In this document: piece by piece, positions 10,906 through 53,005 of the stretch
How the letters are laid out: every line of letters starts with the position of its first letter
How positions within the stretch are numbered: the first letter of the stretch is position 1
NCBI RefSeq assembly: GCF_963921235.1
Contig: NC_086097.1
Coordinates: forward strand, 30,134,001 to 30,198,000
Reading direction: 5' to 3'
DNA: 64,000 bases
Source of the DNA: Mobula hypostoma
Lineage: Eukaryota
The notes under the pieces: model-generated
Told to the model about the DNA's origin: nothing
The model's input: the letters and a program-made list of their open reading frames with translations, nothing else
Database searches by the model: none
Translations under genes and position numbers: made by a program

Positions 10906-10939
10906 GGTGATCTCCTTATACCTCCCGTCTCCTGCTTAC

Positions 10940-10966
10940 CTGCGCGGCCATGAAGGAGAGATCCAT
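10940..10966 (-). CDS. C14orf132: First coding exon of C14orf132 orthologue (MDLSFMAAQ), phase-0 donor; exon 2 not found in the window (presumably beyond position 1)
   Basis: Minus strand reads ATG GAT CTC TCC TTC ATG GCC GCG CAG|GTAAGC. This is identical to the recalled N-terminus of human C14orf132 (MDLSFMAAQ-LPMMGG...). It lies in a CpG island, downstream of and co-oriented with TUNAR as on human 14q32. Confidence 0.85.
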
Positions 10967-11214
10967 GCTGCCGACCGGTCAGCGGAGAGCGGCTGCTCCC
11001 CGCGGAACTTGGCGGCGACGGCCCTCCGACAAGCAGCCAGCTAGCACCCCGACCCCGCGCGCCGCCGCTCGTGCTCTTGCTCGTGCACGCGCCCTCGCGC
11101 CTGGCACCGCCCCTCCTGGGGTGAGGTGGGGGGGGGGGAAGACACACGCGCGCGCGAGCCCAGCGCTTTCCAGCCCACCACCAGTGTCGTCACGTGGCCC
11201 CGTCTGCCCCCTCT

Positions 11215-11256
11215 GTTGCCAGGGCAACGGTACCTAAGCAACGCTCTCTTAGCAAC
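11215..11256. promoter_or_regulatory. Three abutting 14-bp RFX X-box-like motifs
   Basis: GTTGCCAGGGCAAC (11215-28), GGTACCTAAGCAAC (11229-42) and GCTCTCTTAGCAAC (11243-56). All end in the RGCAAC half-site; the first is a near-perfect palindrome. Confidence 0.75.
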
Positions 11257-13533
11257 GCGGGGCCTGGACTGCAAACCGCTGCCTGCGGTAGAGGTTAGTG
11301 ATTTGGGCTGATTCTCGGGTGGCGGACGGATGCGAGCCGGCTGTTGTTGGGGAGTGGGAGGTTGTTCCCTGGCGCCGGGAGCAATCCCTCCCCGCGTTTC
11401 AACTGGGCTGCAAAAAGATCTATTGAGCTCGGGAGTGGAGGTTCAGCACAGGCACGATGGGCTGAATGGTTGTCTCTGCCTATGTTCTAGTCTGGAAGAG
11501 TCGAGTCCAGTCGTGTTTTCTGTCATATGTACGTGAATGCACAGGTGCAATAAAAATATACTTGCAGCGACATCACAGGCGTGCAGCATGGAGACATTGC
11601 ACATTGGTTGTTTATCAGTCTTTGTTTACGTTTAGGTTTTTTTGTTGTAAAATGCATTGTTTTTCTTTCTGTAAAAGCTTGAAAGAAATCAATCTCAAGG
11701 TAGTATGGTAACATATATGTACTCTGATAATAAATTCGCTTTGACTTTGTCTTTGACACAACATTCACAAGAAAAAATATAACTTTGGTTATCAGTCTTA
11801 TAATAGAAGAACGCCCCTTTAGAATAGAGATGAAGAGGAATTTCTTTATCCAGAGAGTGGTGAATCAGCCATGATTGTGGTGGAGAGCAGATTCACAGAA
11901 TATAGAACAGTCCAGCACAGAACAGATCTTTCCCACAAATTGTGCCAATCCAATTAAATTAGTAGTCAAATGGCTAACTAAACTAATACCCTCTGCCTGC
12001 ACAATGTTAATATCCTTGCATTTTGTTCACATTCATGTGCCTATCTAAACATCTCTTAAAAGTCTCAGAATCACCTTTAATATTATCAGCATATGTCGTG
12101 AAATTTGCTAACTTAGCAGTAGTACAATGCAATACATGATAATTGGATTGAATTGATTTTATTACTTACATCCTTCATATACTGTACATGAGTAAAAATC
12201 TTTACGTTACATCTCTGACTAAATGTGCAACTTATAGTAATTTATAATAAGTATTATGCACAACAGGATAGTCAATATAACATAGAAATACAGTTGTGTC
12301 TGCATGAATTAATCAGTCTGATGGCCTGGTGGAAGAAGCTGTCCCGGAGCCTGTTGGTCCTGGGTTTTATGCTGCGGTACCGTGTACCGGAGGTAGCAGC
12401 TGGAACAGTTTGTGGTTGGGATGACTTGGGTCCCCAGTGATCCTTCAGGCACTTTTTACATACCTATCTGGAATATAGAAAAAAAAGTAAATCAATTGCA
12501 TTAAGTAGATACATGTATATTAAATAGTTAAATTAAAAATAGTACAAAAACAGAAATAATAAAAAAGTGAAGTAGTGTTCATGGGTTCAATGTCCATTTA
12601 GGAGTCGGATGTATTTGCCTCTTCCACCATCTCAGGTCGTGCATTCCAGGCACCCACTATTCTCTCTTAAAAACAAACTGCTCTTCAGATCTGCTTTGAA
12701 ATTACCCCCTCTCACCTTAAATGCTTGCCCTATTGTATTAAATATTTCAATCCAGGGCAAAAGAAAATCTGTCTGACTCCGCTATCTATGCCTCTCATAG
12801 TCTTATAAACCTCTGCAAAAGGTCTTTTAAGAGACTCTTAGATAGTACAGAGAGTTTAGTACATAGAGGTCTATGCAGTAGGGAAATTCTAGGCAGTTTC
12901 TAGAGTAGTTTACATAGTTGGCACAACTTTGGGGGCCGAAGGGACTGTTATGTCCTGTAGATTTCTATGTTTCTATCAGATCTTCCCTCAGCCTTCACTG
13001 CTCCAGAGAAAACAACTCAAGTTTGTCCAGCATCTCGTTATAACATGTGCTCTCTAATCCGGACAGCATCCTGGTAAACTTCTGCACTTTCTCCAAAGCC
13101 TCAACATCCTTCTTATAATGGGATAATCAGAACTCTAGTTAGTCTGCATCTGGAATATTGTATGCAATACTCCAGATGTGGTCTAACTATAGTTTCATAA
13201 AGACACAACGTAACTTCCCGACTTTTGAAGGTCACAGCTAATAAAGGTGAGCATGCCGTATGTCTGCTTAACCACCCTATCAACCTGTGTAGCCACTTTT
13301 AGGGAGCTATGAACTTGGTACCCAAGATCCCTCAGCTTCTCAAGTGTACTGTCTCTTTATATTTGGCCTACCAAATTGCAACACTTCACATTTGGAAGGT
13401 TTAAACTCCGTCTGCCATTTCTCCGCCCACATCTGCAATTGATCTATCTACCACTGTATTCTTTGCCAGTCTTCTACACTATCTGCAACACTACCAATCT
13501 TCGTATCATTTGCAAACTGATCCCACCCATCTA

Positions 13534-15496
13534 CAGTGCCTATAAAAAGTATTCACTCTCCTTGAAAGATTTCATGTTTCATTATTGTACAACGTTGAAT
13601 CACAGTGGATTTAATTTGACTTTTTTGATGCAGATCAAAAGAAAAAGACTCTCCTGTCAAAGTGAAAACAGATCCTTGGGGGTCATTGTCTGGCCGGAAA
13701 ACAAATCGTCTCCCAAGTCGCAGTTCTCTTGCAGATTGCGTCAGGTTTTCCTCCAGGATTTCCCTGTATTTTGCTGCATTCATTTTACCCTCTGCCTTCA
13801 CAAGCCTTCCAGGGCCTGCTGTAGTGAAGCATCCCCACAGCATGATGCAGCCACCGCCATACTTCACAGTAGGGATGATATGTTTTTGATGGTGTGCAGT
13901 GCGTTTAGTCTGATGGCCAGAAGGTTCAATTTTGATTTCAACAGACCATAAAAACTTCTTCCAGCTGACTTCAGAGTCTCCCACATGCCTTGTGGCAAAC
14001 TCTAGCCAGATTTCATATGAGTTTTTTGAACAGCTCTTTGCCACTCTCCCTTAACACCCAGAAGACCAAGGAGATCACTGTGAACTTCAGGCATGCTAAG
14101 AGCCACACTCACATCCCCATCTACATCAACGGAGCTGTAGTGGAGCGTGTATCAAGCTTCAAATTCCTTGGTGTCCACATTTCCGAGAATCTCAGCTGGT
14201 CCCTGAACTCCTCCATCCTGATCAAAAAGGCACAACAGCACCTTTATTTCCTGTGGAGCATCAAGAAAGCTCACCTCTGTCCCAGGATACTGACAGACTT
14301 TTACCGCTGTACCATTGAGAGCATACTCACCAACTTTATCTCAGTGTGGTATGGCAATTGTCCTGTATTGGACCGCAAAGCACTCCAGCGTATGGTGAAA
14401 ACTGACCAGCGGATTATCGGCACCCAATTGCCCACCATTGAGAATATCTACTATAAACGCTGCCTGGGCAGGGCGAAAAGCATTATCAAAGATGCATCTC
14501 ACCCTAACCATGGACTTCATACTCTCCTCCCATCCGGTAGGCGCTACAGGAGCCTCCGTTCCTGCACCAGCAGGCACAGGAAGAGCTTCTTCCCTGAGGC
14601 TGTGACACTGCTGAACCTCACATCACAGCGCTAAGCAGTATTGCCCCTATATTGTACTGTCTCAGTACTTTTATATTTGTGTGCTGTAGTGCTGTGCTTT
14701 TTATTTGCAGTTATTTGTAAATAACACTATTCTTTGCATTTCTGGTTAGTTGCTAATTGCATTTCATTGGCTTTGTATCTGTACTCGGCACAATGACAAT
14801 AAAGTTGAATCTAATCTAATCTAATAAAGCTGCGACTGGTGAAGCACCCAGGCAACAGTTGTTGTATGCGCAGTCTCTCCCATCTCAGCCACTGAAGCTT
14901 GTAACTCCTCCAGAGTTGTCATAGGTCTCTTGTTGGCCTCCCCCACTAGTTCCCTCCTTACACGGTCACTCAGTTTTTAAGGACAGCCTGCTGTAGGCAG
15001 ATTTACAGCTGTGCCATATTATTTCCTTTCCTTGCATCCATCTCCTGACTTGTGCTTTTCAACAACCTTTTCGCGGAGTTGCTTGGAGTGTTTTTTTGTC
15101 TTCATGGTGTAGTTTTTGCTAGGATACTGACTCAGCTGCTGTTGGACCTTCCAGATACAGGTGTATTTTTACTGCAGTCAATTGAAACACCTTGACTGCA
15201 CATGGTGATCTCCATTTAACTAATTATATGACCTCTAACACCAATTGGCTACACCAGTGATGATTTGGTATGCCACATTAAAGGGGTGAATACATATGGA
15301 ATCAATTTTTTTGTGTTTTATATTTATAATTAATTTAGATCACTTTGTAGAGATCTGTTTTCACTTTGACACGAAAGTCTTTTTCTGTTGATCAGTGTCA
15401 AAAACAGACAAATTAAATCCACTGTGATTCAATGTTGTAAAACAATAAAACATGAAAACGTCTGGAGGCAGGGGTGAATACTTTTTATAGGTACTG
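13534..15496 (-). mobile_element. Tc1-family DNA transposon with long TIRs, defective transposase, interrupted by a Rex1 fragment
   Basis: TA|CAGTGCCTATAAAAAGTATTCAC ... GTGAATACTTTTTATAGGTACTG|TA, with inverted similarity over about 140 bp. ORF 13553..14044(-) has the Tc1 motifs TVKYGGGCIMLWGCF and FRPDNDP. Confidence 0.93.
14051..14823 (+). mobile_element. Rex1/Babar non-LTR retrotransposon 3' fragment
   Basis: KTKE...VERVSSFKFLGVHI...KKAQQHLYFL...FYRCTIESIL; AATAAA followed by an (aatct)n tail; splits the Tc1 between ccactctccc and ataaagc. Confidence 0.88.
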
Positions 15497-16450
15497 TACA
15501 TTATCATCGGAGTAATTTATATACATCACAAATAGCAGAGTTTCCAGTACAGATCTATGTAGAACACCACTAATCACAGATCTCCAAATATAATAAGTCC
15601 TTTTGAACACTACCCCTTCTGAGGAAGCCAGTTCTGAACCCAAACAGCCAATTCACCTTGGATCCATGCATCTTAGTCCCATGAGGGACCTTGTCAAACC
15701 CCTTATGTAGCAACATCCACAGCTCTACCTTCATCAATCATTCTTGTCACCTTGTCAAAAAACTCAATCAAGTTAGTAAGACACAATTTGCTCCGCACAA
15801 AGCATGCTGGCTCTCCCTAATTACACCATGGTTTTCCAAATGCTCATAAATCCTAAGAATTCTCTCCAGTAATTTCCCTACCACTGACATAAGACTCACC
15901 GGTCTATACTTTCCAGGATTATCCCTGGTTCCCTTCTTGAATAATGGAACAATATTAGCTACTTGCCAGTCCTCTGGGACCTTGCCTGTGGCTAGAGAGG
16001 TCACAAGGCCCCAGCAGTCTCTTCTCTTGCCTCCCTCAATAACCTGGGGTCTATTCCATCAGGCGCTGGAGACATATCCACCTCAATGCTCTTTAAGAGA
16101 CACAGCACTAGCTCCTCCTTTACTTCGAAATGCCCATCAGTCTGGGCGAGCACAGAGGCTAGTGTGGATAAGGATGAAAGCTTTCCTTCCTGGAACGGAG
16201 GAAGTAGGAGAATTTAGTCCTTCAAGCTTGCAATCAAGATCACGCTTTGTCTTCTATCTCAGCTCCAGGTTCTTGCTCTAGCCGCATATGTCGTTTGAAT
16301 GAACCCAATGAACCTGATGGAATTCAACTCTGAAACTGGAGTTCAACCCAGAAAAGTGTGGAGTGATTCACCTGGAAAGTTGATTCTGAAGGCAGAATAC
16401 AGTGTTAATTGCAGAAGTGTGGAGGAACAGAAGGATCTTGGAGTCTAATC

Positions 16451-16640
16451 AACCTTCAGGCTTTGATATAGACTTCCATGCAACCTTTGGGCTTCAAACT
16501 AGACTTCCAATCGACCTTAAGGCTTCGATCTGAACTTCCACTCAACCTTCGGGCTTCGATTTGGACCTGCACTCGACCTTTGGGCCTCAATCTGAATTTC
16601 CACTTGACCTTGGGGATTCGATCTGGACCTGCACTCAACC
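16451..16640. repeat. 31-bp tandem repeat, about 6 copies
   Basis: Unit approximately aaccttcgggcttcgatctggacttccactc, starting at 16451, 16482, 16513, 16544, 16575 and 16606. Confidence 0.9.
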
Positions 16641-17627
16641 CTCAGTATCGAACTAGGACATGCCGATGATGATAAATGAGGACCCGAAATCCAGGCCTCG
16701 AGCTCCAGACTCTCCAATGATGGGACCCCAAATACCTGGCCTCAAATATGCTTCTCATGATTTGCATACTTAGGGAGTTACCAGCCCTCGTTCTTCCTGC
16801 CTGCATGGAACTCAGATCCCAGAACAGGCTGATGACTCCAGGCTTCATCTCGCTGGTGCGCAGGCTGACTACATCTACGTTACTAACCTTCAAACATGGA
16901 GCAGAGGCTTAGACTTTGTCCTGTCCTCTATTCCTCCACATCCCAGTCCTTCAACCTAGCCTGATCCCTAACTTCTTACAAGCATAAAAGGAGTTTTAAA
17001 AGACAACCAAGTCAGAGCCGTGACCTCAGTGGAGACCACAGCTCAGCACCATCTTGACTGGAGATGTGTTGCCACTGGAAGACAGCCCCCACCACATCCT
17101 TAGGCGGTGTTGTTTGTTAATGCAAATGTGCATTTCACTGTACATTTCATTATAGATGTGATAAATAAATCTGAATCTAAATCTGTGACAACTATTTTTG
17201 TTTTCCCTTCAACTACCTCAATGCACTGTTGTAACAAATTGATTTGTATGAACAGAGTGCAGATTATTTAGAAATACTAATAATTCGGCCTCTAAATTAC
17301 TGGGTGCAGATTGCCATGCTCCCTCTTACAAGCTAAAGAGATTAGTTGTCTTTGTCACATGAACATCAAAACATACAGCGAACCACGTCATTTTGCAGGC
17401 AATCAGATCAGTGAGGATTGTGGTGGGCAGCCCATAAATGTCATCACACTTCTGGCATCAACGTAACCTACCCACAACTTACTAACCCTAACCCATGGAA
17501 TGTGGGAGGAGATTGGAGCACCTGGAGGAAACCAAAGTAGTCGTGGAAATTAGAGCCCTTGCACTCTAACACCAGGCCAGGGTCCTGTTCTGCCTTTACC
17601 ATTGCGGGTTTTCAGTTCCCATTCTTC

Positions 17628-17629
<2 letters not shown>

Positions 17630-17684
<55 letters not shown>

Positions 17685-17697
17685 ACACACTTACACA
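17630..17697. repeat. (CA)n microsatellite
   Basis: Direct reading. Confidence 0.98.
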
Positions 17698-17707
17698 CCA
17701 GGATATC

Positions 17708-20700
17708 AAAACATAAAATAGAGACATAGAAAACCTACAGCACAATGCAGGCCCTTCGGCCCACAAAGCTGTGCCGAACACACACTTACCTTAGAAATTA
17801 CCTCGGGTTACCCATAGCCCTCTATTTTTCTAAGCTCCATATACCTATCCAGGAGTCTCTTAAAAGACCCTATCGTGTCCATCTCTACCATCGTCGCCGG
17901 CAGCCCATTCCATGCACTCACCACTCTGTGCGTAAAAAACTTACGCCTGACATCTCTTCTGTACCTACTTCCAAACGCCTAAAAACTGTGCCCTCCCGTG
18001 CTAGCCATTTCAGCCCTGGGGAAAAGCCTCTGACTATCCACACGATCTATGCCTCTCATCATCTGGTACACCTCTATCAGGTCACCTCTCATCCTCCGTC
18101 GCTCCAAGGGAAAAAGACCGAGTTCACTCATCCTACTCTCATAAGGCATACTCCTCAATCAGGCAACATCTTTGTAAGTCTCCTCTGCACCCTTTCTATG
18201 GTTTCCACATCCATCCTGTAGTGAGGCGACTAGAAATGAGCACAGCACCAAGTGGGGTCTGACCAGGGTCCTATATAGCTACAACATTACCTCTCGACTC
18301 GTAAACTCAGTGGCATGATTGATGAAGGCCAATACACTGTATGCCTTCTTAACCACAGAGTCAACCTGTGCAGCTGCTTTGAGTGTCCTATGGACTCAGA
18401 CCACAAGATTCCTCTGATCCTCCACACTGCCAAGAGTCTTACCATTAATACTATATCCTGCCATCGTATTTGACCTACCAAAATGAACCACCTCACACTT
18501 AACTGGGTTGAACTCCATCTGCCACTTCTCAGCCCAGTTTTGCATCCTATCAATGTCCCACTGTATCCTCTGACAGCCCTCCACACTATCCACAACGCCC
18601 CAATCTTTGTGTCATCAGCAAATTTACTAACCCATCCCTCCACTTCCTCATCCAGGTCATTTAAAAAGTCACAAAGAAAAGAGATCCCAGAACTACTTAC
18701 CAACCACTGAAGTAGGACTCATTGGTCTATAATTTCCTAGGCTATCTCTACTCCCTTTCTTTAATAAGGGAACAACATGCGCAACCCTCCAATCCTCCGA
18801 ACCTCCCCTGTCCCCATTGATGATGCAAAGATCATCGCCAGAGGCTCAGCAATCTCCTCCCTCGCCTCCTACAGTAGCCTGGGGTACATCTCATCCAGTT
18901 CTGGTGACTTATCCAACTTGACGCTTTCCAAAAGCTCTAGCACATCCTCATCCTTAATATCTACATGCTCAAACTTTTCAGTCCGCTATAAGTCATCCCT
19001 ACAATCACCAAGATCCTTTTCTGTAGTGAATACTGAAGCAAAGTATTCATTAAGTACCTCTGCGGATCCTCTGCTATCTCCTCTGGTTCCATACACACTT
19101 TTCCACTGTCACACTTGATTGGTCCTATTCTCTCACGTCTTATCCTCTTGCTCTTCACATGCTTGCAGAATGCCTTGGGGTTTTCTTTAATCCTGTCCGC
19201 CAAGGCCTTCTCATGACCCCTTCCGGCTCTCCTAATTTCATTCTTAAGCTCCTTCCTGCTAGTCTTATAATCTTCTAGATCTCTATCATTATCTAGTTTT
19301 TTGAACCTTTTGTAAGCTCTTCTTTTCTTTTTGACTAGATTTACAACAGCCTTTGTACACCACACTTCCTGTACCCTACCATCCTTTCCGTCTCATTGGA
19401 ACATATCTGTGCAGAACTCCACACAAGTATCTCCTGAACATTTGCCACATTTCTTCCATATGTTTCCCTGAGAACATCTGTTTCCAGTTTATGCTTCTAA
19501 GTTCTTGCCTGATAGCCTCACATTTCCCCTTCTCCAATTAAACGCTTTCCTAACTTGTCTGTTCCTATCCCTTTCCAATGCTATGGTAAAGGAGATAGAA
19601 TTGTGATCACTATCTCCAAAATGCTCTCCCACTGAGAGATCTGTCACCTGACCAGGTTCATTTCCCAATACCAGATCAAGTACAGCCTCTCCTCTTGTAG
19701 GCTTATCTACATATTGTGTCAAGAAATCTTCCTGAACACACCTAGCAAACTCCACCCCATCCAAACCCCTCGCTCTAGGGAGATGCCAATCAATATTTGG
19801 GAAATTAAAATCTCCCACCACAACAACCCTGTTATTATTACACCTTTGCAGAATCTGTCTCCCTATCTGCTCCTCGGTATCCCTGTTACTATTGAGTGGT
19901 CTAGAAAAAACACCCAGTAGAGTTATTGACCCCTTCCTGTTCCTAACTTCCACCCACAAAGACTCTGTAGACAATCCCTCTATCTTCCTCCTTTTCTGCA
20001 ACCGTGACACTCTCTCTGATCAACAGTGCTATGCCTCCACCTCTTTTGCCTCCCTCCCTGTCCTTTCTGAAACATCTAAAACCTGGCATTCAAAGTAACT
20101 ATTCCTGCCCCTGAACCATCATAGCTCCAAGTACTGGCCCACCTCTAAGCTCATCCGCTTTGTTCATAATACTCCTTGCATTAAATAGACACATCTCAAA
20201 TTATCGGTCTGAGCGCGTCCCTTCTCTATCACCTGCCTAGCCTCCATCTCGCGCTGTCTCCAAGCTTTCTCTATTTGTGAGCCAACCGCCTCTTCCTCTG
20301 TCTCTTCAGTTCGGTTCCCACACCCCAGCAATTCTAGTTTAAACTCTCCCCTCTAGCCTTAGCAAACCTCCCAGCCAGGATATTTGTCCCCCTGGGATTC
20401 AAGTGCAACCCATCCTTTTTGTACAGGTCACACCTGCCCCAAAAGAGGTCCCAATGATCCAGAAATCTGAATCCCTGCCCCCTGCTCCAATCCCTCAGCC
20501 ACATATTTATCCTCCACCTCATTCTGTTCCTATACTCACTGTCACATGGCACAGGCAGTAATCCCGAGATGACTACCTTTGTAGTCCTGGTTCTCACCTT
20601 CCTTCCTAACTCCCTGTAGTCTGTTTTCAGGACTTCCTCCTTTTTCCTGCCTGTGTCGTTGGTACCAATATGTCCCACGACCTCTAGCTGTTCTCCTTCC

Positions 20701-22549: not shown

Positions 22550-22708
22550 CGCAACACACATCAAAGTTGCTGGTGAACGCAGCAGGCCAGGCAGCATCTC
22601 TAGGAAGAGGTACAGTCGACGTTTCGGGCCGACACCCTACCCGGCTGCGTTCACCAGCAACTTTGATGTGTGTTGCTTGAATTTCCAGCATCTGCAGATT
22701 TCCTCGTG
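22550..22708. mobile_element. Penelope-derived fold-back insertion with a 13-bp target duplication, inside a CR1 fragment
   Basis: Perfect 33-bp inverted repeat 22551-22583 / 22644-22676, flanked by AAGTTTATGGTCA at 22537-49 and 22709-21. Confidence 0.8.
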
Positions 22709-41289: not shown

Positions 41290-44200
41290 GAGACATTAAA
41301 TATCACATAATTAGGCACTTTCAAGGTCCAATAAACAGAAACTAGATTTATACGGAGCAGCCATTGTGTGAGTGGGAATTTGAGGCTTTGGCTCATCGAA
41401 GCTTCAGCGAGGAGAGGCATAGGCCACAGGTAGATTTTTTTTGTTATTTATTCATTCTTTCTTTCTTATTGCACATTTAGAGCAGTGGAGATGCCAGGCA
41501 GGATGGTGGAATGCTCCTCCTGCGGGATGTAGGAAGGCAGGGAGAACTCCAGTATCCCTGACAACTACCCCTGCAAGAACTGCATCCAGCTGCAGCTTCT
41601 AACAGACCATGTTAAGGAGTTGGAGCTGGAGCTGGATGAACTCTGGATCATTCGGGCGGCTGAGGGGTTGATAGATGGGACATATAGAGAGGTAGTTACA
41701 CTCAAGGTGCAGGATGCAGGAAACTAGGTGACAGTCAGGAAGGTGAAAGGGGTTAAAAAGTCAGCATAGAGTACCCCTGTGGCCATCCCCCTCAACAACA
41801 GGTATACCACTTTGGATACCGTTGGGGGCTATGACCAAGCAGAGGAAAGTCACAGCGCTAAGGAAAGTCTCTGGCACTAAATCTGACTCTGTGGCTCAGA
41901 ACAGAAAGAGGAGAAGAGGCGAGCCATAGTAATAGGGGATTTGTTGGTTAGGGGAACAGAAAAGAGGTTCTGTGGACAAGCATGAGATTCATGGATGGTA
42001 TGTTCCCACCCCAGTGCCAGGGTTAGGGACATCTCAGATCAAGTCCACAGCATTCTTAAGTGGGGGGAGGGGGTGAGCAGGCAGAGGCTCTGGTCCATAT
42101 CATACCAATGACATGGGTAGGAGGCATGATGAGGACCTGCAAAGTGAATCAAGGGAGTTAGGTGCTAAGTTAAAGGACAGGACTTCCAGGGTTGTGAACT
42201 GAGGTTTGCTACCTGTGCCATGTGCTAGAGGGGACAGAAATGGGAAGGTCATACAGTTTAACATGTAGCTATGGAGATAGTGCAGGAGCGAGGGCTTCAG
42301 ATTATTGGATCATTTGGCTCTCTTCCAGGGAAGGTGGGACCCGTACAGAAGGGATGGTTTACACCTTAAATGGAGAGGGACTAATATCTTAGCAGGAAGG
42401 TTTGCTAGTTTTGTACGGGGGAGTTTGAACTGGAGTTGCTAGGCTATGGGAACCAGAGCACCAGAATAGGTAGTGGAGTGGTTGTGGAGAAAGATGTTGT
42501 TAATTCTACATACCAAGTCCGGAATCAAAGGTTGAGCATGGTGCGACTAGTGTCCTGAACTGCAATATTTCAACACAAGTATTGTTAGAAAGGCGTTTGA
42601 GCGTAGGGCATGGATCAGCATGTAGAATTATGACATTGTAGCCATCAGTGAGAGGTTGGTTGCAGAAGGAGCAAGACTGACAGCTCAGTGTTCTGGGATT
42701 CCATTGTTTTAGATGAGATAGAGCAGGAGGGAGTAAAGGGAGACAGGTGGCATTTCTAGTCTGGGAAAATGGCATGGCAATGCTCAGTCAGAACAGACTG
42801 GAGAGCTCATCTAGTGAGGCTTTATGAGCTGAACTGAGGAATAAGAAAGGAATGATCACGTTAATGGGATTACATTATAGGCCACCCAACAGTCTGCAGG
42901 TTTACAGGAGTTAATTTATAGAGGTTACAGACCGTTAGAAGAAACACAAGGTTGTGATAGTAGGTGATTTTAACTTTCCACATATTGACTGGGACTCCTG
43001 TTCTGTAAAAGGGCTTAATGGGTAAGAGTTTGTCAAATATGTTCAGGGAAGTTTCTTTAATTAATACATTTAAGTCCCAACTAGGGAGACTGCAATACTA
43101 GATCTCCTACTAAGGAATGAGACAGAAGTTTATGTAAGGGAACACTTTACGTCTAGTGATCATAATGCTATTAGTTTCAAGATAAAAGGATCGGTCTGGT
43201 TCCCAGGTTGAGATTTTAAATTGGAGTTAAGTCCAATTTTTGATGGTACCAGAAAGAATCTGGCAAGTGCGGATTGGGACAGGTTGTTTTCAGACAAAGG
43301 TGTACTTGGTGAATGGGAGTCCTTTAAAAGTAAAAATTTGGAAGTACAGAGTTTGTATATTCCTGTCAGAATAAAAGGCAAAGATAACCGGTCTAGGGAA
43401 CCTTGGTTTTCAAGAGATATTGAGGTCCAGGTTAAGAAAAAGAAGGAGATGCATAGCAGGTATTGGCAAGTAGGAACAAATGAGGTGCTTATGGAGTATA
43501 AGAAATCCAAAAGAAAACTTAAAAAGGAAATCAGGGCTAAAAGAAGGCATGAGGTTGCTCTACCAGATAAGATAAAGGGGAATTCTAAGGGCTTCCACAG
43601 ATACACTAAGAGGAAAAGGATAATAAAAGAAAACATTGGCCCTCTGGAAGGTCAAAGTGGTAATCTATGCATAAAGCCGGAAGAGATGGGGGAAATCTTA
43701 AATGTAATTATTGCATTTGTATTTACTCAGGAGATGGACACAGAAGTGAGGCAAAGCAGCAGTAAGGTCACAGACTATAAACAGATTACAGAGGAGGAGG
43801 TGTTTGCTGTCTTGAGGCAGATTAGGGTGGATAAATCCCCAGGCCTGACAAGGTGTTCCCTATGCAAGGCTGGTACAGAAATTGCAAGGGCCTGGGGCTC
43901 TAGCAGAGATATTTAAAACGCTCTTAGCCTTGCGTGAGGTGCTGGAGGATTGGAGGGTAGCTAATGTTGTTCAATTGTTTAAGAAAGGCTCTAAAATGAA
44001 ACCAGGAAACTTAAAGGTTGATGAACCTGACATTAGTACTGGGTAGTTATTGGAAACTATTCTAAAGGACCAGATATATAAGCATTTGAATAGATGGGGT
44101 GATTAGAGGTAGTCAACGTGGCCTAGTAGGTGTAACCAATCTTATAGTTTTTGATGAAGTTACTAGAAAAGTTTATGAAGGCAAGACAGTGGATGTTGTC

Positions 44201-44634
44201 TACATGGATGTTAGCAAGCCCTTTGACAAGGTCCTGCATGGGATGTTGGTCAAAAAGGTTCAGTTGCTTAGCATTCAAAATGAGGTAGTAGATTGGATTA
44301 GACCTTGGTTTTACAGGAGAAGTCAGAGTATGGTAGTAGATGGTTGCCTGTTTCTTACTGGAGGCCTGCGACTAGTAGTGATCAGTGCTGGAACTGTTGT
44401 TGTTTGTCATTTATATCAACAATCTGGATGACAGTGTGGTAAGCTGGATCAGCAAATTTGCAGGTGACACCAAGATGGGGGTGTAGTGGACAGTGAGAAA
44501 GACTATCAAAGCTTGCTATGTGGTTGGTCCTCCCAAAGTGCAACACCTCATACTCTTCTGCATTAAATTCCATCTGTCATTTTTCAACCCATTTTTTCCA
44601 GCTGGTCCAGATCCTTCTGCAAGCTTTGGATAGC
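41290..44634 (+). mobile_element. Old full-length-type CR1 (ORF1 + ORF2), heavily mutated, ending in an inverted segment
   Basis: ORF1 zinc-finger/esterase-like sequence at about 41490-42430; ORF2 fragments 43221..43916 and 44099..44431. Confidence 0.85.
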
Positions 44635-46657
44635 GTTTAATGGCTCTTGGCCTGTACTCACTGGAACTCAGAAGAATGGGCTGGGGTGGGGGGGTGGGAT
44701 CTCATTGAAAAATTTCAAATGTTGAAAAGTCTCAATAGAGTGGATGTGGAGAGGATGTTTCCTATGTTGGGGAGTCTAAGACCAGAGCGCACAGCCTCAG
44801 AATTGAGGGACATTTATTTAGAATGGAAATGAGGAAGATTTCTTTAGCCAGAGAGTGGTGAATATGTGGAATTCATTGCCACAAGTGGGAGTGGAGGCCA
44901 AGTCCTTGGGAATATTTAGTGCAAAGGTTGATAGATTCTTGATTGGTTAGGGCATGAAAGGTTACGGGGAGAAAGCAGGAGAACAGGGCTGAGAGGGAAA
45001 TGGATCAGCCATGATGAAGTGACAGACCAGGCTCGATGGGCCAAGTTGCCTAATTCTGCTCCTGTATGTTATGGTCTTAGGTCACACACAATCTGCATCC
45101 TATCGATATCCAGTTGTAACCTACAACAACTTTTCACACTATCCACAACACCACCAACCTTTGTGTCATCTGCAAACTTACTAACCCACCACTATTCCAG
45201 AATCCCACAATTGGCAGCCTGGGTCAGAGTTACAGTTTTTATCTCTAGAATTCCCTCCCAAAACCTTTATCAATCTTGAAGATATTACTTAAAATCTACC
45301 TCTTTAAACTTAAACACAAGAGAATCTGCAAATGCTGGAAATCTTGAGAACAGACACTAAGTACTGGAAGAACTCAGCAGGTCAGGCAACATCTATGGAT
45401 GGGGATAAGTAGCTGACATTTCATGCTGAGGTTCTTTGTCCAGAGGAACAAAGATTTTTTGTCCAAAGGTTAGTTAAAGTCCACAGCTTGGCAAATCCTG
45501 AGATAAAAAATTCAACGGTCGAAAACTGAGGTCAGTGAGTCTGGAGGTAGAGGCCCAAACAACAAGTCTGCCAGTCTGCTCCAGGGACTGGAACCCGAGG
45601 GGCCCCATGTTTGTGAGTCCCAGAGTCCAAAGCCAAGGACTGGAGGCCCGGAGTCAGTCTGCCCTGTGGTGGGAGGTGTTCCTGTGTGAGTGGGAGGACG
45701 AGTGGCTGGGAAGGCAGGAAAAGATCTTGTTTTGCTGTTGTTGTCTTGTTTTATTCTGTTGTTGTTATTGCTTGTGTCATTGGTGCCACATTGTGTGGCA
45801 TCACTTATGATTGCCCTCAGCACACCCATGGCAAATACAAGCAACACATTTCACCATATGTTTCAATGTGCACGTAATAAGTAAATCTGAAATCTGAAAT
45901 CCTTCATCAAGATACTTAGCAGTCCTGATGAAAGACGTCAGCCCGAAACATCGACTATTTATCTCCCCCCATAGATTCTGCTTGATTTGCTGAGCTCCTC
46001 TTTAACCTTTTGTGAACCCATTAGAACAACTGTAAACAGGCTTGCAATGTTTTCCAGTGTCAGCTGCGCAGTGGCGTTTACTGTTGCCACATAGAAGCTT
46101 GGGGAATGATCTGACAAAATCATGAGGAGCATGGATTGGATGAATGCTCACAATCTTTTTCCCAGGGTTGGGAAATCAAGAGCTAGAGAGCATAAGATTA
46201 AGCAGAGAGGTAAGAGGTTTAATGGGAACCTGAGGGACAACTTTTTCACCTGGACAGCAGTCTATATGTATGGAACGGGGTGACACGATAGCATAGTAGT
46301 TAGTGCAATGCTTTACAGCACCACTTATCAGCGTCTGGGGTACAATTCCTGCTGCTGTCTATAGGGAACTTATATGTCTTCTCTGTGCCTGTATGGGTTT
46401 CCTCCAGGTGCTCTGGTTTCCTCCCACGTTCCAATGACATATAGGTTAGCGTTAGGGTAAGTAAGCTGTAGGCATGCTATGTTGGTGCTGGAAGATTGGT
46501 GACACTTGTGTGCTGCCCCAGTACATCCTCTGGCTGTGATGGCTGTTAACACAAACAATGCATTTCACTATGTTTTGATGTACATGTGGCAAATAAACCT
46601 CATTTTTTTAAAAGGGAAGTGGTTGAGACAGGTACATTGAAAGTCATTTGTACAGAT

Positions 46658-47492
46658 TGTTACGAGAATACACATGAAATTAAGATGTTTGCTGGCCTGG
46701 GCTAGCATCAGTGGCATCAGCAGTTGGTCTGCCACCTGCCCTCAGGGGAAGGAGAGATAAGGAACAATGGAGCAGCGTCTGGAGATGTGTAATGAAGGGA
46801 TGTGGGAGGAAGAGCTGTCTGGAGCGGCTCCCCCCTTTGAAGCCTGAACTGTTTGAAGTGATGGACAGGCGATACCCCAGCAGGGGGATAAAAAGGGACA
46901 GGTTCGCTAAGACAGACACACACGCCACCCGAGGTAACGAGACCCTGGAAGCGGTACGCTTCTCACGAGTGGGTGGAAAGGTACGATCAGCGGGAACCCG
47001 GTGTGTGTCCGCCCTTGCCTGGGTGCCGGGTTCACTGCAGAGGATCGACCGCATCTGGAGGAGGGGTCACAGTCGGTGACCTCAGGTGACATCACCGAGG
47101 ACCCGCCCAAATGCTGTTTTGTGAGCCATCTTGCTGGTCTGTGAGTGAAGCCGTTCTGAATGATGAGTTGTTCCTATTCTATCTCTCTCTTCCCCCACGT
47201 TGTCCACCGCCATGGCAACGATTACTGCGAACTGAACTACTAAACTGGACTGAACTTTGAGTCATTTTGAAATTGGTCATTTACCCCTAGACAACGATAG
47301 AGCTTGATTGATGCTGTTATCTTAATTCTGTGCACATGTGTGTTTATCATCACTGAACTGTTGCATTTATTATCCTTTCGATTACTGTGTTGCTTGTTTC
47401 TGTAATAAAACTTTCTTAGTTCTAGTACTCCAGACTCCAACTGAGTGATCCATTTCTGCTGGTTTGGCAACCCAGTTACGGGGTACGTAACA
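46658..47492 (+). mobile_element. Solo LTR (835 bp) of an LTR retrotransposon or ERV
   Basis: Termini TGTTACG...CGTAACA, 4-bp TSD AGAT, TATA-like gggataaaagg at about 46885 and AATAAA at about 47404; CpG-rich; inserted in a CR1 3' fragment. Confidence 0.88.
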
Positions 47493-49004
47493 AGATACAC
47501 AGACAGGAAATATTGAAAGGATGTGGGTCAAACATGGGCAAATGTGATTAGCTAAGATGAGCATCTTGATTGGCATTAGCCAGTTGAGCCAAAGGGACTG
47601 GTTCTATGATTTGGTTCTGTGAGGATTAATGTTCTGTTACAGCTAATGAAATTTCCATTAAGTTAATAAATCTAAACTGCCCTCATTGCCTCACTCCCTT
47701 CATTCACATCCTCAACAATCTGCTTCAGACAGTACGCCTCTTACAATTCCTTTCTTATCTGACAATCGTCTGGGGAGAATATTGGTGAGTCAGACAGTGA
47801 GGGAGTCATCAGTAAACGGCTGGCACAGTCTGAATGGCATCCCACGAGACCATCTCTGGGTTTAGATCAAGCAGCCAGCATCTGATTTCTTGGACGGAGA
47901 GAGCTGAGCAACGTAAGGGATCAGAAGTGAAGAGAGACTCTGAGATTAGTGGCGTTCCACAGGGATTCGTACTGGGACCTCTGTTGTTTGTGATATATGC
48001 AGATGAGCTGGATGAAAATGTAGGTGGGTGGGTTATTAAGTTTGCAGATGACACGAAATTTGCTGGTGTTGTGGATAACGTAGAAGACTGGCAAAGAATA
48101 CAGCAGAATATAGATCAGTTACAGATATGGGCAAAGAAATAGCAGATGGAGTTAAAGCTGACCAAATATGAAGCCTGTCCACCTTGGTAAGTCAAATGTA
48201 AAGAGACAGTAAGAACCTTTCACTGTCCATGAGCAGAGGGATTTCAGGGTCTAAGTTAATTGCTCCCTAAAAGTGGCTACACAAGTTGATAGGGTGGTTA
48301 AGAAGGCATGTGACACGCTTGCCCTTATTAGTCAAATCACTGAGTTCAAAAATCAGGAAGTTATGTTATAACCATATAACAATTACAGCACGGAAACAGG
48401 CCATCTGGGCCCTTCTAGTCCATGCCGAACGTTTACTCTCACCTAGTCCCACAGACCCGCACTCAGCCCATAACCCTCCATTCCTTTCCTGTCCATGTTG
48501 CAGCTGTATAAAACTCCATTTAGGCCTCGTTTGGGGTATTCCATACAGTTCTGGTCAGACCCATTATAGGAAAGCTGTTGAGGGTTTTCTTTAACACAGC
48601 GGATGGTGGATGCCCTGGGGTGAGGTGGAGGTTGATACGAGACGTTTAGAATAGGCACACAAATGTGAGGGAAATGGAAGGATATTGACATAGTATAGAC
48701 AGAAGAGATTAGTTGGCTATTGATTATTAATTGAATTCGTTTGGCACAACATTGTAGGCTGAAGGGCCTGTTGTTGTACTGTTCTGTTCTATGTTCTGAA
48801 AGGGCACGGTCATTCACCTCAAACAGACTGAGACATCTCTCAAGATGTGAAGCACAGAATTGTTTCATTAATATAGCAGCCCTGAAGCAAATGATCAAAC
48901 CTTCAATGTTTGCTATTTTTATTTACAAAATACTCTCATTTACAAATGTAAGATTCCTTGTTTTAAATAAAGATTGGAAAAGTGGAAATGTTGTTATAAG
49001 ATCT

Positions 49005-49500
49005 TGTGCCACAATGAGGCCATACTCAGGGTGGAGGAGCGACACCTTATATTCCATCTGAGTAGCCTTCAACCTGATGGCATGAATATCGTACTAATCA
49101 TGAACCTATCAACAGTATTTTCCCTTCCCTTCTATTCCCACTCTGGCCTCTTATCTCTTCTTACCTGTCTACTACCTCCCCCTGGTGTCCCTCCTCCTTC
49201 CTTTTCTCCTATAGTCCACTCTCTGCTCCTATAAGATTCCTTCCTCTTCAGCCCTTTACCTTTTCTACCCACATGATTTCACCTATCACCTTCCAGCTAT
49301 TCTCCTTCCCCTCCCCCCACCTTTTTATTCTGGCATCTTCCCCCTTCCCGTCCAGTCCTAAAGAAGGGTCATGGCCCAAAATATTAACTATTCATTTCCA
49401 TGAACACTGCCTGACCTACTGAGTTCCTCCAGCATTTTGTGTGTGTGTGTGTGTGTGTGTGTTGCTTTGGATTTCCAGCACCTGGAGAATTTCTCATGTT
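49005..49500 (+). mobile_element. Penelope-like 3' fragment with degenerate hammerhead and (GT)n
   Basis: CHNEAILRVEERHLIFHLSSLQPDGMNI; 3' region similar to 24027-24478. Confidence 0.75.
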
Positions 49501-52500
49501 TAAAATTTGTCTCATTCAATCTTGCCTCAGATGGGATACAAGTGACAAGACTTCAAACCGAAGCCTGTGAACATTCACATCAGGCTCAAAGACACCTCCT
49601 ACCCCATTGTTATATGAGTCGTGAATGGACATCTTGTACGATAAAGATGAATTCTTGATCTCATAATCTACCTCCTCATGGCCATTGCATCTTGTTTGCT
49701 GAACTGCATTTTCTCATAACACTATATTCTGCATTCTGTTGTTATTTTCCTTTTTGTACTACCTTGATGTATTAACGTTTGGGATGATCTGTATGGGTAG
49801 CAATCAGCAAACAAAAGCTTTTCATCGTACCACAGTACAAATGGGAATAAGAAACCAATTACCAATTAGGCAGGTCATGTACAAACTGTACTTAGTTACG
49901 TGACTACAAGAGCAAGCCATTGGCAGTCATGTGACATCATTTAGTTAGAGGACTGGAGGTCCACATGTCACATGAGTTGTCTTTGTCCATTATCTAGAGA
50001 GGAAGTGTAGCTAGGTATCCAACTGCCCCTGGTGCTAGGGCTGTGTGGCCCCAGGTCTTAGTGAGTAACTGGTTTAATATCTGCAGTGAGAGGCTTTATT
50101 CTGTGTGCCATGCAGATAGATCATTTCACAACTTAAGTACATTGAGGTAGCTTAAAGATCAATACAATAACTGAATTCAGAATAAAGTGTGGAGCAGGTA
50201 GTCAATAAGGCGCAATGCCATGATGAGGTAGATTTTGAGGTCAACAGCCCATTAGAACCGAGTTAAGGAGGAATTTCTTTATCCAGAGGGTGGTGAATCC
50301 GTGGAATTCATTGCCCCAGATGGTTGTGAAGGCCAATTCATTGGGTAAGTTTAAAGTGGAGGTTGATAGGTTCATAATTCATAAGGGCATCAGAGGTTAC
50401 AGGTAAAAGGCAGGAGAATGGGTTGAGAGAGCCATGATCAATTGGCAGGACAGACTCAATGGGCCAAATAGCCTAATTCTGCTCCTATGTCTCATGGTCT
50501 TAACATACTAGGGAACCATATAAGAATAATCTTATAACAGTGGGCTAGAAGCTGTCCTTAAGCCTGGTAATATATGTTTTCAGGTTTTAGTATCATTTGA
50601 CGAATGGGAGGAGTTAGAAGAAAGAACATCTAGGGTCGGTGGGTCTTTGATTATGTTGGGTGCTTTACTGAAGCAGCAAGAAATGGTAAATAGACTCCAT
50701 GGAAGAGAGGCTGGTTTCTGTGACATGCCGAGCTGTGTCCACAACTGTGGTTTCTTGTGGTCACATGCAGAGCAGTTGCCGTATCAAGCTGTCATGCATC
50801 CAGACAGGTGATGCAGTTCTGGTCCTCTCAGAGGAAGCAGGAGGAAGCTTTTGAGAGGGTTCAGAAGAGATTTACTGGGATGCTGCCTGGATGAGAGGGC
50901 ATGTCTTATGAGGATAGGTTGAGTGAGCTAAAGCTTTTCTCTTTGGAGCAAAGAAGGATGAGAAATGACGACAGATGTGCATAAGATGATCAGAGGTATA
51001 GACTGAGTTGATAGTCTGTCCTTTATTCTCAGGGCATCAATGGCTAATACAGGGGTGCATAATTTTGAGGCGATTAGAGGAAAGTGTAGGTGGATGTCAG
51101 AGGTAGGATTATTTACACAGAGAGTGGTGGGTGCATGGAACACACTGCCTGGGGTAGTGGTAGAGGCAGATACATTAAGGGCACTTAAGTGCCTCTTAGA
51201 TAGGCAAATGGATGAAAGAAAAATGGTGAGCTACGTAGGAGGGAAGGGTTAGATTGATCCTGGAGTAGGTTAAAAGGTTGGCAGAACATCATGGGCCATG
51301 GGGCCTGTACTGTGTTCTCCATGCATCTGTGGGAACATGATGAGGTAGGAGCCAGCCCTGGCCCACTGGACCTGTGCCAGTGAAATCCAGAGATTCTGCA
51401 GAGCAACAAACACAAAATGCTGGAGGAGCTCAGCAGGTCAGACAGCATCTATAGGGAGGAATAAATAGCGATGTTTCGGGCTGAAACCTGATGAAGAATC
51501 TTGGCCCAAAGTGTCAACAGTTCATTTCCCTGCATAGAAGCGCCAGACCTGCTGAGCTCCTTTAGCATTATGTTTGTTGCTGTCATGTACCCAGCTGGTC
51601 AATGCTGTCAGACCTTCCTCTATCCCAAGCCATCGGCTCTCCTATAGGAAAATTGCATGAAATAATGGGGAAATGTTGGAGAAAATTGGACTACATGGAT
51701 CCTACCCTGAAGATCAAGTGGCAACAAAACATCCCATCGAGAGGTCATCAAAATATCACCACTGCATTTCTCTTTCCACACACACACTGCCTGACTCACT
51801 GAGCATTCTCTATTTATTTCAGATTTCCAGCATCTGCAGTTTACATGTTTTCCACGTTCGTGAAGTGTGGTTGATGAAGAGTAAACTCAGCCTTGCTCTT
51901 TGGTCTGTCTCGTCACACCTGGTGCAGGGACCTGGCAACTAGGGCATCTATGGAATCACAGAACGATATACATCCCCCTCCCCCACCCCCAACACCACTT
52001 CAGATAAAAGCTGGTTATCCTTCACCAGGATAACCAATACAACCAGGTGTTGTACTTATAAGAAGGTCCTGGACTGATACAACAGTTCCTACACACAAGA
52101 ACTGAGAGAGTAGTGGACACAGCCTGGTCCATCTCAGACACAGTCCTCCCCACCACAGACATCATCTATAGGAAGTTCTGCCCCAAGAAGGTGACATCCA
52201 TTATCAAGGATCCCCACCATCCAGGCCATTCCATCTTCTCTATGGCAAGAAATATAGAAATCTGAGGTTCCCCACCACCAGGTTCTGAAACAGCTACTTT
52301 CCTATAACCATCGTGTTCTTGGACTGCCCTGCACAACCTTAACCCTACCTCAGCAATTGAGCACTATGGACCATGCACTGCCATGGGCTTGGCTTCAGCT
52401 GTTTCTTTTTTATGCATTAATGTTTTATTGCTCAACCTTTTTTGATTGTCTTGTACTATGTATAATTTATGTTCTGTGTGTTGTTTGTACCTACGTGCCT

Positions 52501-52858
52501 ATGATGATGCTGCAAGCAAGTGTTATGGAAACATTAAAACATATAACACTATAAGCATAGTATCACCTATATAAAACTACTCCACGATCAATCTAATCCT
52601 TTCCTCTTATATAGCCCATAACCTCCATTTTTATATCCTGTAACTGTAGCTCACCATATTTGTGTTCATGGCAATAAATTTGATCTCACTCGACTTGAGA
52701 ATGACCCATATCCCAGCTGCAACCTGCGGCTGGCATTTTCAATGGAAGAACTGAGTCCATTAAACATCTTCAATAATAATTGTGGAATGCAGCTACATTG
52801 AATGGACATCCTTGGCTGACAGAGATATCGCACCATAAACTGTTGTAGACAGCCCTGA

Positions 52859-53005
52859 CTACAGTGTCGTACAGATGTACACAAAAATAATAAGCAAAAG
52901 GTTAAGGATTGTGCCAACGATGCCCAGGATGGCTAGAATAATCTCCTCCTTCCTTTCCCTCCTCTGGTCCAATGAGATATCTTCATTGGCCGCAGTGATG
53001 ACCAT
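52859..53005 (-). CDS. TUNAR: TUNAR micropeptide (pTUNAR/BNLN orthologue), 48 aa, single C-terminal transmembrane helix: MVITAANEDISLDQRRERKEEIILAILGIVGTILNLLLIIFVYICTTL
   Basis: C-terminal 48 aa of track ORF 52859..53098(-). ATG at 53005 in a strong Kozak context (aagATGg), stop at 52861-52859. Upstream splice acceptor ttctgtggctttcctctctccag| with the exon starting at 53045. Same length and near-identical TM segment to the recalled human peptide MVITSENDEDRGGQEKESKEESVLAMLGIIGTILNLIVIIFVYIYTTL. Confidence 0.92.
   Translation of the reverse strand: MVITAANEDISLDQRRERKEEIILAILGIVGTILNLLLIIFVYICTTL

Follow-up and report, generated by a model that had tools for sequence, protein, structure and literature searches.

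TUNAR and C14orf132 as probable tandem paralogues encoding tail-anchored microproteins in jawed vertebrates

The window analysed here is a stretch of 64,000 nt from Mobula hypostoma (NC_086097.1), in which an open reading frame on the minus strand (53005-52859) translates to 48 aa that include the membrane segment which an earlier note on this DNA had quoted for TUNAR. The frame matched Pfam family PF21954 (TUNAR) at positions 1-48 of 48, with E=1.8e-18 and 66.6 bits against a curated cutoff of 27 and, judged from its sequence, it is a full-length member of the TUNAR family. Its identity to P0002, a protein named TUNAR by its sources, is 67%. A word-index search with the window TUNAR as the sole query returned 0 relatives, which reflects a limit of sensitivity, because other searches found 103 and 432 relatives. 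Ahead of the start codon, the acceptor ending at 53046 is probably the one used by TUNAR. In relatives, 13 codons (39 nt) separate the acceptor from the ATG, against 40 nt in the window, so that the long N-terminal form of TUNAR may be out of frame in Mobula hypostoma. A search of the window for a TUNAR upstream exon found none.

At the other end of the pair, an ATG at 10966 on the minus strand opens 27 nt of coding sequence, which is followed by a phase-0 GT donor after 10940. The encoded 9-mer agrees in 9/9 residues with the N-terminal motif of 65 of the 120 listed C14orf132 proteins. In three of four runs (3 organisms, 3 studies), a contig spans this exon and breaks off from the window precisely at 10940; the RNA status of the runs is the tool's guess, none being recorded as RNA. 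Run X7 gave no contig over the window. The loose ends of the contigs past 10940 are 202-255 nt long, and 30 letters of the loose end, read by hand, make up 10 codons identical to the exon-2 start of P0106. The 9 codons at 10966-10940 belong to exon 1 of C14orf132, which is spliced to a matching exon-2 start. Exon 2 itself was looked for and is absent from the window; it lies beyond the left end. The contig from run X8 differs from the window by 31 substitutions and 15 gaps, none of them listed in 10940-10978. A 20-aa frame around exon 1 had no match in Pfam; in the copy used, genuine C14orf132 proteins likewise failed to bring up a model of their own family.

Table 1. Features of the two genes and of the sequence around them in the Mobula hypostoma window.
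Feature	Position	Strand	Basis or remark
C14orf132 intron 1 start, with LINE fragments and simple repeats	1..10939	-	sequence, contigs, frame scan
Coding part (9 codons) of C14orf132 exon 1, phase-0 donor	10940..10966	-	sequence, contigs, family motif
C14orf132 5' UTR, covered by contigs	10967..11295	-	reach: 11117 in X1, 11295 in X8 (another species)
CpG-rich, GC-rich stretch, C14orf132 first exon and likely promoter	10600..11600	.	GC up to 0.69, CpG o/e ~0.9
Intergenic stretch, ~41 kb	11600..52400	.	long frames with Pfam matches are retrotransposon-type
Candidate polyadenylation signal, first AATAAA past the TUNAR stop	52424..52429	-	sequence motif
TUNAR CDS, type-A, C-terminal membrane helix	52859..53005	-	48 aa + stop; ORF and Pfam
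Pyrimidine tract, AG acceptor and 40 nt exon before the TUNAR ATG	53006..53059	-	AG at 53047-53046; sequence only

Both genes are located as the earlier note had claimed, on the minus strand about 42 kb apart with TUNAR upstream. Among 24 long stop-free frames scanned (16 of them between the genes), the Pfam matches were of LINE type (RT, endonuclease, GDSL esterase) plus one to ALKBH8_N, which we take to be a LINE RT tail, and Rfam gave no match to the window. The claim that no other host CDS lies between the two genes stands for the long frames scanned, but short host exons may still be present there.

The two protein families share a hydrophobic C-terminal helix, whose stop codon follows 12-13 residues past an invariant mid-helix Asn (13 residues in 171 of 215 TUNAR proteins and 12 in 118 of 122 C14orf132 proteins). 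In both families an acidic residue stands 14 positions before the Asn, and a basic residue is almost never found after it. Small or polar residues recur at the same positions, namely G/A at -7 and -4, T at -3, N at 0, Y at +8 and T at +11, and they are gathered on one helix face (R=0.79, P=0.0045). The T-x-x-N-(x6)-VY pattern that had been proposed as common to the two proteins holds in both families; in the six frames of the window it occurs once, in TUNAR. With a single hydrophobic helix at the C-terminus and no signal peptide, both predicted proteins are of the tail-anchored type. The AlphaFold model of C14orf132 has one confident helix, the last, and a low-confidence N-terminus, with a mean pLDDT of 65. 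Both genes appear to encode the helix in a final exon that begins in phase 0, as seen in L001, L002 and the long forms of TUNAR, although phase 0 is the commonest phase and in the window the TUNAR acceptor lies 40 nt from the ATG.

Outside this segment the two families have little in common. The similarity is limited to about 26-37 C-terminal residues, with 7-11 identities of 26, and about 55 conserved N-terminal residues, as well as family-specific Trp and Gly residues in the helix, belong to C14orf132 only. Each family is near-invariant on its own across the whole vertebrate span. The first coding exons of both families have Met at -4. Otherwise they are at chance level, a score as high as that of C14orf132 exon 1 on the profile of the TUNAR upstream exon being reached by 31% of random 9-mers, and first-exon similarity was dropped as evidence of homology.

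Comparison of the TUNAR profile (57 sequences) with that of C14orf132 (120 sequences) by hhalign gave a probability of 86.4 (P 4.6e-6). The alignment spans 37 columns without a gap and brings the two C-termini into register, which bears out the gapless alignment suggested in the earlier note. Trimmed blocks scored 22.6, a value attained by 1 of 873 shuffles of the core columns; reversal lowered the score to about 7. Ungapped profiles were also scored against a TM background, and in each direction the median between the families was higher than the score of every one of 1,131 E. coli TM segments (Z 4.3-4.8); here the natural null consists of bacterial helices rather than eukaryotic tail anchors and the alignment register was picked after seeing it. 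Composition shuffles reached this median in 15 and 12 of 100,000 trials. The real score was reached by 28 of 200,000 shuffles that kept the helix face, and by 192 and 204 of 200,000 when the Asn was also fixed; none of the 159 E. coli helices that contain Asn attained it. Over the nulls as a whole, P for the median cross-family score lies between about 1e-4 and 2e-3. The C14orf132 profile had no match in E. coli K-12.

Among 24,736 Pfam families, TUNAR was the one matched by most C14orf132 members (68 of 120, with 38 for the next family). For P0105 it was the top match, at 15.1 bits and under the cutoff of 27, and P0106 had no TUNAR match. Over the 120 members the best E was 0.015 (~15 bits), and as a member of PF21954 C14orf132 fails the curated cutoff of 27 bits. 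Unrelated TM families match at least as well, such as HCMV_UL124 (E 0.0028) and, with a TUNAR query, MpPF26 (0.00066). With the C14orf132 HMM, the best TUNAR members reached 20.6 bits, and none of 177,635 PDB sequences scored above 16.6; the median cross scores of 12.6 and 10.0 bits are below those of the best unrelated PDB helices (PsbJ 16.6, cadherin-1 14.6), and the TUNAR of the window scored 10.7 bits. BLASTP of P0001 against P0105 or P0106 produced no alignment at E<=100. A TUNAR-C14orf132 heterodimer folded without alignments had a score of 0.07, which counts neither for nor against a contact. In the ESM Atlas, which serves here as a lead only, C14orf132 (PF28562) was the sole named non-TUNAR family shown for the window TUNAR (rank 8, score 0.76), and a query with P0002 against named clusters, TUNAR being skipped, gave no usable match. 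Neither the Atlas search with the window TUNAR nor the Pfam-wide ranking makes use of the adjacency of the genes. The profile similarity of TUNAR and C14orf132 is borderline: it is under the Pfam cutoff, BLASTP does not see it, and the best unrelated helices in the PDB score close to it. The proposed old duplication gains from a profile comparison at 86% that exceeds both natural and shuffled TM controls, but the likeness stays below family thresholds and is marginal beside the best PDB helices.

The ESM Atlas also gave an arthropod cluster at rank 4 (0.84, 133 shared features), likewise as a lead only.

The locus tags of TUNAR and C14orf132 are consecutive in five of six teleost genomes; in the sixth they lie one tag apart. 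Accession pairs and contig data from tetrapods agree with adjacency. Conservation of the neighbourhood, which the earlier note had named as a check, has support from teleosts, amphibians, reptiles, birds and mammals; this count leaves out as ambiguous Alligator (different assemblies), Equus, Enoplosus and Scomber, together with the clusters whose longest contigs have 152,063,543 and 46,493,224 bases (several species). In human 14q32 the two genes presumably stand in the same order and orientation. C14orf132 has been located at 14q32 (PMC5034552). Co-orientation was observed in the window and in one Cynoglossus gene model, in which the TUNAR upstream-exon peptide is joined to C14orf132 exon 2 (E 2.7e-7; 1 of 51 extensions), and therefore the two genes have the same strand and the same order there. 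The idea of a pair kept linked as a system is weakened, because the second teleost C14orf132 copy is on a contig other than that of the listed type-A TUNAR in 4/4 such species and TUNAR paralogues are present at other loci. The lamprey TUNAR is fully TUNAR-like (20/26 identical to that of the window), and no cyclostome C14orf132 or intermediate peptide was found among the 120 of 299 matches listed.

Taken together, we consider that TUNAR and C14orf132 are probably tandem paralogues of common ancestry, with a probability of roughly 0.7. It is distinctly unlikely that they are unrelated neighbours, born independently, whose Ile/Val-rich helices with one Asn are alike by composition or chance and which were kept together by general conservation of gene order. 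The silence of BLASTP, scores near those of the best PDB helices and within the Pfam TM noise, dissimilar N-termini and first exons, and the existence of two Pfam families (PF21954 and PF28562) would all suit such an origin, and most vertebrate neighbour genes are expected to stay on the same chromosome anyway. However, the real score is seldom attained by shuffles in which composition, face and Asn position are retained, and no Asn-containing E. coli helix attained it; the nearest family in the whole database is that of the adjacent gene, which is seldom expected by chance. The gathering of the shared residues on one helix face might also reflect separate origins, followed by selection of a small/Thr/Asn/Tyr stripe by the same membrane groove (e.g., that of SERCA) or by the insertion machinery, and some known SERCA micropeptides are described as having no clear mutual sequence similarity (PMC8758570). 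Such convergence is very unlikely, as it leaves the adjacency, the co-orientation, the apparently matching phase-0 last exon and the stop codons in register unexplained; moreover, face-preserving shuffles are still beaten, and neither profile matched the known SERCA binders in the PDB.

Within common ancestry, a serious possibility, at somewhat less than even odds overall, is that the paralogues have diverged in their jobs, C14orf132 serving another partner or compartment via its long N-terminus with no role at a Ca2+ pump. The conserved N-terminal residues and the helix Trp and Gly particular to C14orf132, the near-invariance of each family separately, and the second C14orf132 copy of teleosts, on another contig than type-A TUNAR, speak for this divergence. 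Against it, the residues kept in common make up the polar face expected at a partner contact, and brain is reported as the site of highest expression for both genes (PMC4865363, PMC8758570).

On the preferred reading of tandem paralogy, two single-pass tail-anchored microproteins would have arisen from an old tandem duplication and been neighbours ever since across jawed vertebrates. A helix so near the stop codon would be inserted after translation, leaving the N-terminus of both proteins in the cytosol, and the common Thr/Asn/Tyr stripe may be the surface by which each helix docks, within the membrane, on a larger protein there. According to previous studies, the TUNAR microprotein (pTUNAR / BNLN) co-precipitates SERCA2 and SERCA3, the ER calcium pump (PMC8758570, PMC8416971), and both TUNAR and C14orf132 are described as brain-enriched (PMC8758570, PMC4865363). 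In the most likely working model, C14orf132 would use this face in brain cells to dock on the pump that TUNAR binds or on a related P-type pump, and its longer conserved cytosolic N-terminus would add regulation. SERCA binding by C14orf132, proposed by analogy with TUNAR, is nonetheless rather unlikely. It is unlikely, too, that the pair represents a hitherto unrecognised family of calcium-pump regulators in the neural ER, with two branches, unrelated to the regulins and docking by the mid-helix Thr/Asn/Tyr stripe. In such a family C14orf132 would be another modulator of SERCA, with a cytosolic regulatory tail that TUNAR lacks; it would have stayed beside TUNAR from early jawed vertebrates onwards, and read-through splicing would sometimes fuse the two. 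A literature search found no paper linking TUNAR with C14orf132 and, for C14orf132, no report of localisation, partner or SERCA binding; several papers treat it as a lncRNA (e.g., PMC5034552). The Ca2+-pump role envisaged in the earlier note is published for TUNAR (PMC8758570, PMC8416971), and for C14orf132 it is conjectural.

The suggestion of a regulin-like system does not hold as family membership. The regulin motif xLFxxF, as stated in PMC8758570, was found in 0 of 215 TUNAR and 0 of 122 C14orf132 helices, and at E<=10 neither family profile matched a phospholamban or sarcolipin chain in the PDB, nor was any such Pfam family matched; membership fails because the LFxxF motif and any phospholamban or sarcolipin match are absent. 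The same source describes pTUNAR as without similarity to regulins or DWORF (PMC8758570).

C14orf132 is brain-enriched and near-invariant from fish to mammals with no function assigned, and kinship with TUNAR provides a first testable guess. If it is a TUNAR paralogue, C14orf132 is predicted to be located in the ER with a cytosolic N-terminus and to bind SERCA via the Asn face, and PF21954 and PF28562 would merge into one Pfam clan. The zebrafish megamind/TUNA mutant reportedly has no phenotype (PMC6347452, citing another study); C14orf132 would be a possible source of redundancy, for which the paralogues of TUNAR itself are likelier cover. Both genes, as well as tandem microprotein paralogues, are already known, and therefore what is new here is the link between TUNAR and C14orf132, not a new kind of system.

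Compared with the TUNAR family (PF21954), C14orf132 is alike in the pattern of the C-terminal helix, the Asn-to-stop distance and apparently the phase of the last exon, and differs in its score (~15 bits against a cutoff of 27), its 9-codon first exon and its conserved N-terminus of about 55 residues. Exon 1 of the window is identical to the N-terminal 9-mer of the C14orf132 family (PF28562), from which no difference was seen. Like TUNAR and, by prediction, C14orf132, the SERCA regulins (phospholamban, sarcolipin, myoregulin, endoregulin and another-regulin) and DWORF are small proteins of the ER/SR that cross the membrane once by a C-terminal helix. Phospholamban and sarcolipin carry an Asn near the cytosolic end of the helix; unlike the regulins, TUNAR and C14orf132 lack LFxxF and have the Asn mid-helix. 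The single-pass regulators FXYD and KCNE, which act on pumps or channels, occur in tandem clusters as well; their adjacent small paralogues regulate a large transporter and are readily alignable. The TUNAR-C14orf132 pair, whose likeness lies at the detection limit, resembles these clusters in its adjacency.

The TUNAR reading frame matches the Pfam TUNAR family over its full length (E 1.8e-18, 66.6 bits, cutoff 27), in agreement with the earlier note, and its predicted splice acceptor, an AG ending at 53046, lies 40 nt rather than 39 nt ahead of the ATG (53006-53046, minus strand). No upstream TUNAR coding exon was found anywhere within the 64-kb window, and in this species the long form may lose its reading frame or be spliced in another way. 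Such an exon, of 12-24 residues and ending M-x-C-x, is kept in teleosts, reptiles and amphibians (sequences P0228-P0330), with Met at -4 in 66/103. Conservation is therefore higher for the long form (73-85 aa) than for the 65-aa one treated in PMC8758570. TUNAR is also present in lampreys and sharks, and gnathostome TUNAR divides by motif into at least three subtypes (52/104, 28/104 and 21/104), with a lamprey type in addition; subtype B occurs in snakes, one lizard, sturgeon and teleosts. A single predicted protein of Knipowitschia caucasica (P0015) contains two consecutive TUNAR-type helices, which suggests a younger tandem copy. In the ESM Atlas, rank 4 for the window TUNAR protein is an unnamed arthropod cluster (114 aa, 86 members, score 0.84), above C14orf132, possibly an invertebrate relative or else a chance match.

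Coding features of the two genes in the window
Feature	Coordinates	Strand	Remark
TUNAR coding sequence	53005-52859	minus	48-residue ORF
C14orf132 exon 1, nine codons then GT donor	10966-10940	minus	within CpG-rich stretch

Contigs covering C14orf132 exon 1 were obtained from three of the four sequencing runs aligned to 10900-11400 (three organisms, three studies; their RNA status is the tool's guess), and none from the fourth. All three part from the window precisely at 10940 and continue for 202-255 letters; upstream of the coding part the most distant shows 31 substitutions and 15 gaps, with none listed within it. Exon 2 is absent from the 64-kb window, and C14orf132 sequences were obtained by a pattern scan of metagenome contigs, which gave two loci, followed by alignment of both and a search for relatives. 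At each locus there is an acceptor together with a frame of 74 or 78 codons whose end encodes a hydrophobic helix. The alignment matched 299 relatives; PF28562, the Pfam C14orf132 family, is present in all 120 listed, and the majority of named proteins among these bear the name C14orf132. The nine-residue window peptide is the exon-1 peptide in 65 of the 120 listed, the others having different predicted N-termini, and the hand-translated loose end past 10940 equals the first ten residues of fish-type exon 2. The identities at the exon-1 peptide and the exon-2 start, together with the splice departure, therefore confirm the C14orf132 identification of the earlier note, and both genes are ordinary members of their families (TUNAR, PF21954; C14orf132, PF28562). 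In the C14orf132 alignment, the stretch S-L-F-N-S-S is also almost invariant; it includes an N-glycosylation sequon. Long spurious open frames arise just inside intron 1, from some 2.8 kb of simple repeats with a purine/pyrimidine skew (8072-10900).

TUNAR and C14orf132 form a real, conserved gene pair, as had been proposed. Six genomes have both genes listed under GenBank locus tags. In five of them (Etheostoma, Albula, Synaphobranchus, Crenichthys and Lucifuga) the two tags follow each other directly, and in Takifugu flavidus they are one tag apart; two contigs among these genomes measure just 258 and 488 kb. Accession numbers run consecutively in two turtle pairs; in a frog pair they differ by two, on a single contig. 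The longest contig size, compared by eye, agrees between the two genes in another 21 named species (fish, frogs, turtles, a skink and a rodent among them); this places both on one chromosome or scaffold without showing that they are adjacent. The sizes disagree in four species (Sardina, Danio aesculapii, Symphorus and Lampris), and in 4/4 the C14orf132 record belongs to the second teleost copy. Ambiguous cases were left out of the synteny count (Alligator, with different assemblies, Equus, Enoplosus and Scomber), as were several-species clusters with longest contigs of 152,063,543 and 46,493,224 bases. The second teleost copy (P0223 cluster, P0221, P0225) has Thr at helix position -5, counted from the invariant mid-helix Asn (0), and its contig differs from that of type-A TUNAR, the subtype found in the window. 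Orientation is evidenced by the window, where both genes are on the minus strand, and by one Cynoglossus semilaevis C14orf132 model (UniRef, P0116), whose N-terminus is the TUNAR upstream-exon peptide (17/24 identical to TUNAR relative P0052, E 2.7e-7, one of 51 extensions tested) continuing in frame into C14orf132 exon 2. This model may be a read-through transcript or an annotation artefact; the joined structure requires both genes on the same strand in the same order, which we take to be the arrangement at human 14q32 as well. The absence of other recognisable host CDS between the genes holds for long frames, the Pfam matches among 24 scanned in the window being retrotransposon-type; short host exons may still occur there. 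A LINE between the genes carries an unbroken 992-codon endonuclease and reverse-transcriptase frame (36856-39831, plus strand).

The two genes are probably ancient tandem paralogues. The C-terminal likeness suspected in the earlier note reappeared in a profile-profile comparison, with an hhalign probability of 86.4 (P 4.6e-6) over 37 gapless columns and the C-termini in register, above shuffles and E. coli helices. Anchored on the Asn, both families share the commonest residue at nine positions (-12 I, -6 I, -5 I, -3 T, 0 N, +3 V, +7 V, +8 Y, +11 T), E/D at -14 and G/A at -7 and -4. The real alignment scores 22.6 and the reversed one about 7; 1/873 column shuffles match the real score. In a separate scoring, in which the profiles were set against a background of membrane helices, the median cross-family score was attained by 15/100,000 and 12/100,000 shuffles in the two directions, by 28/200,000 shuffles confined to helix faces and by about 200/200,000 with the Asn also fixed; in both directions it exceeded all 1,131 E. 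coli segments (159 with central Asn). Two rankings made without use of gene adjacency agree: TUNAR is the Pfam family matched by most C14orf132 members (68 of 120 listed from 299; next family 38), and C14orf132 is the sole other named family shown in the ESM Atlas for TUNAR (rank 8, score 0.76). On the C14orf132 HMM, the neighbouring TUNAR subtype has the highest median (14.1 bits; others 11.6, 9.9 and 6.9), a weak hint that the duplication may have arisen at this locus.

These scores beat shuffles and bacterial helices, but BLASTP gave no alignment between window TUNAR and C14orf132 proteins P0105 and P0106, the first coding exons are no more alike than by chance, and C14orf132 reaches only about 15 bits on PF21954 (cutoff 27); the relation claimed is a clan-level link, not PF21954 membership. 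Unrelated membrane families in Pfam give equal or better E-values, and the best unrelated helices among 177,635 PDB sequences score 16.6 and 14.6 bits on the two profiles, where the best cross-family members reach 20.6 and 15.5 (medians 12.6 and 10.0; window TUNAR 10.7). A second Atlas query, with TUNAR relative P0002, returned nothing usable for the link. The register was picked with hindsight, and the natural helix control is bacterial. Since the calibrated probability of such a likeness by chance is, for a single pair, about 1e-4 to 2e-3, and the partner is the immediate neighbour gene, common ancestry is the better reading (probability about 0.7). Literature naming both genes comprised the gene list of a linkage interval and an expression table with both mouse genes; no statement of their relatedness (paralogy, duplication, SERCA) was found in it or in the accessible text of PMC8416971, PMC6886504 and PMC13434451, and subscription papers, supplements or Pfam clan tables may hold one.

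In both families a single helix forms the C-terminus, ending 13 residues after the Asn in 171/215 TUNAR and 12 in 118/122 C14orf132, with a basic residue C-terminal of the Asn in 1/104 and 1/122. From established membrane biology, both proteins would be tail-anchored with a cytosolic N-terminus. Six small/polar positions common to both cluster on one helix face (R 0.79, P 0.0045), and this stripe would pack against a partner helix. TUNAR is reported to reside in the ER and to co-precipitate SERCA2, with faster Ca2+ clearance (PMC8758570), or SERCA3, with lower ER Ca2+ (PMC8416971); the two papers give opposite directions of effect. C14orf132 is described in PMC4865363 as an 83-residue transmembrane protein with highest expression in brain; its predicted model is confident for the C-terminal helix only, and the conserved N-terminus is a putative regulatory tail. 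C14orf132 may dock on SERCA or a related pump through the helix face that it shares with TUNAR, the favoured working model though less likely than not overall, and a joint calcium-pump system is a hypothesis open to testing rather than an established result.

The regulins (phospholamban, sarcolipin, myoregulin, endoregulin and another-regulin) differ in their LFxxF motif, which is missing from the helices of TUNAR (0/215) and C14orf132 (0/122), and neither profile matched the phospholamban or sarcolipin chains among the PDB sequences. Neither protein is thus a regulin by family, contrary to one sense of the earlier proposal, and PMC8758570 likewise sets TUNAR apart from them. In the other sense, that of action, the likeness may extend to C14orf132 and stands for TUNAR, which acts like a regulin on the published SERCA data (PMC8758570 and PMC8416971).
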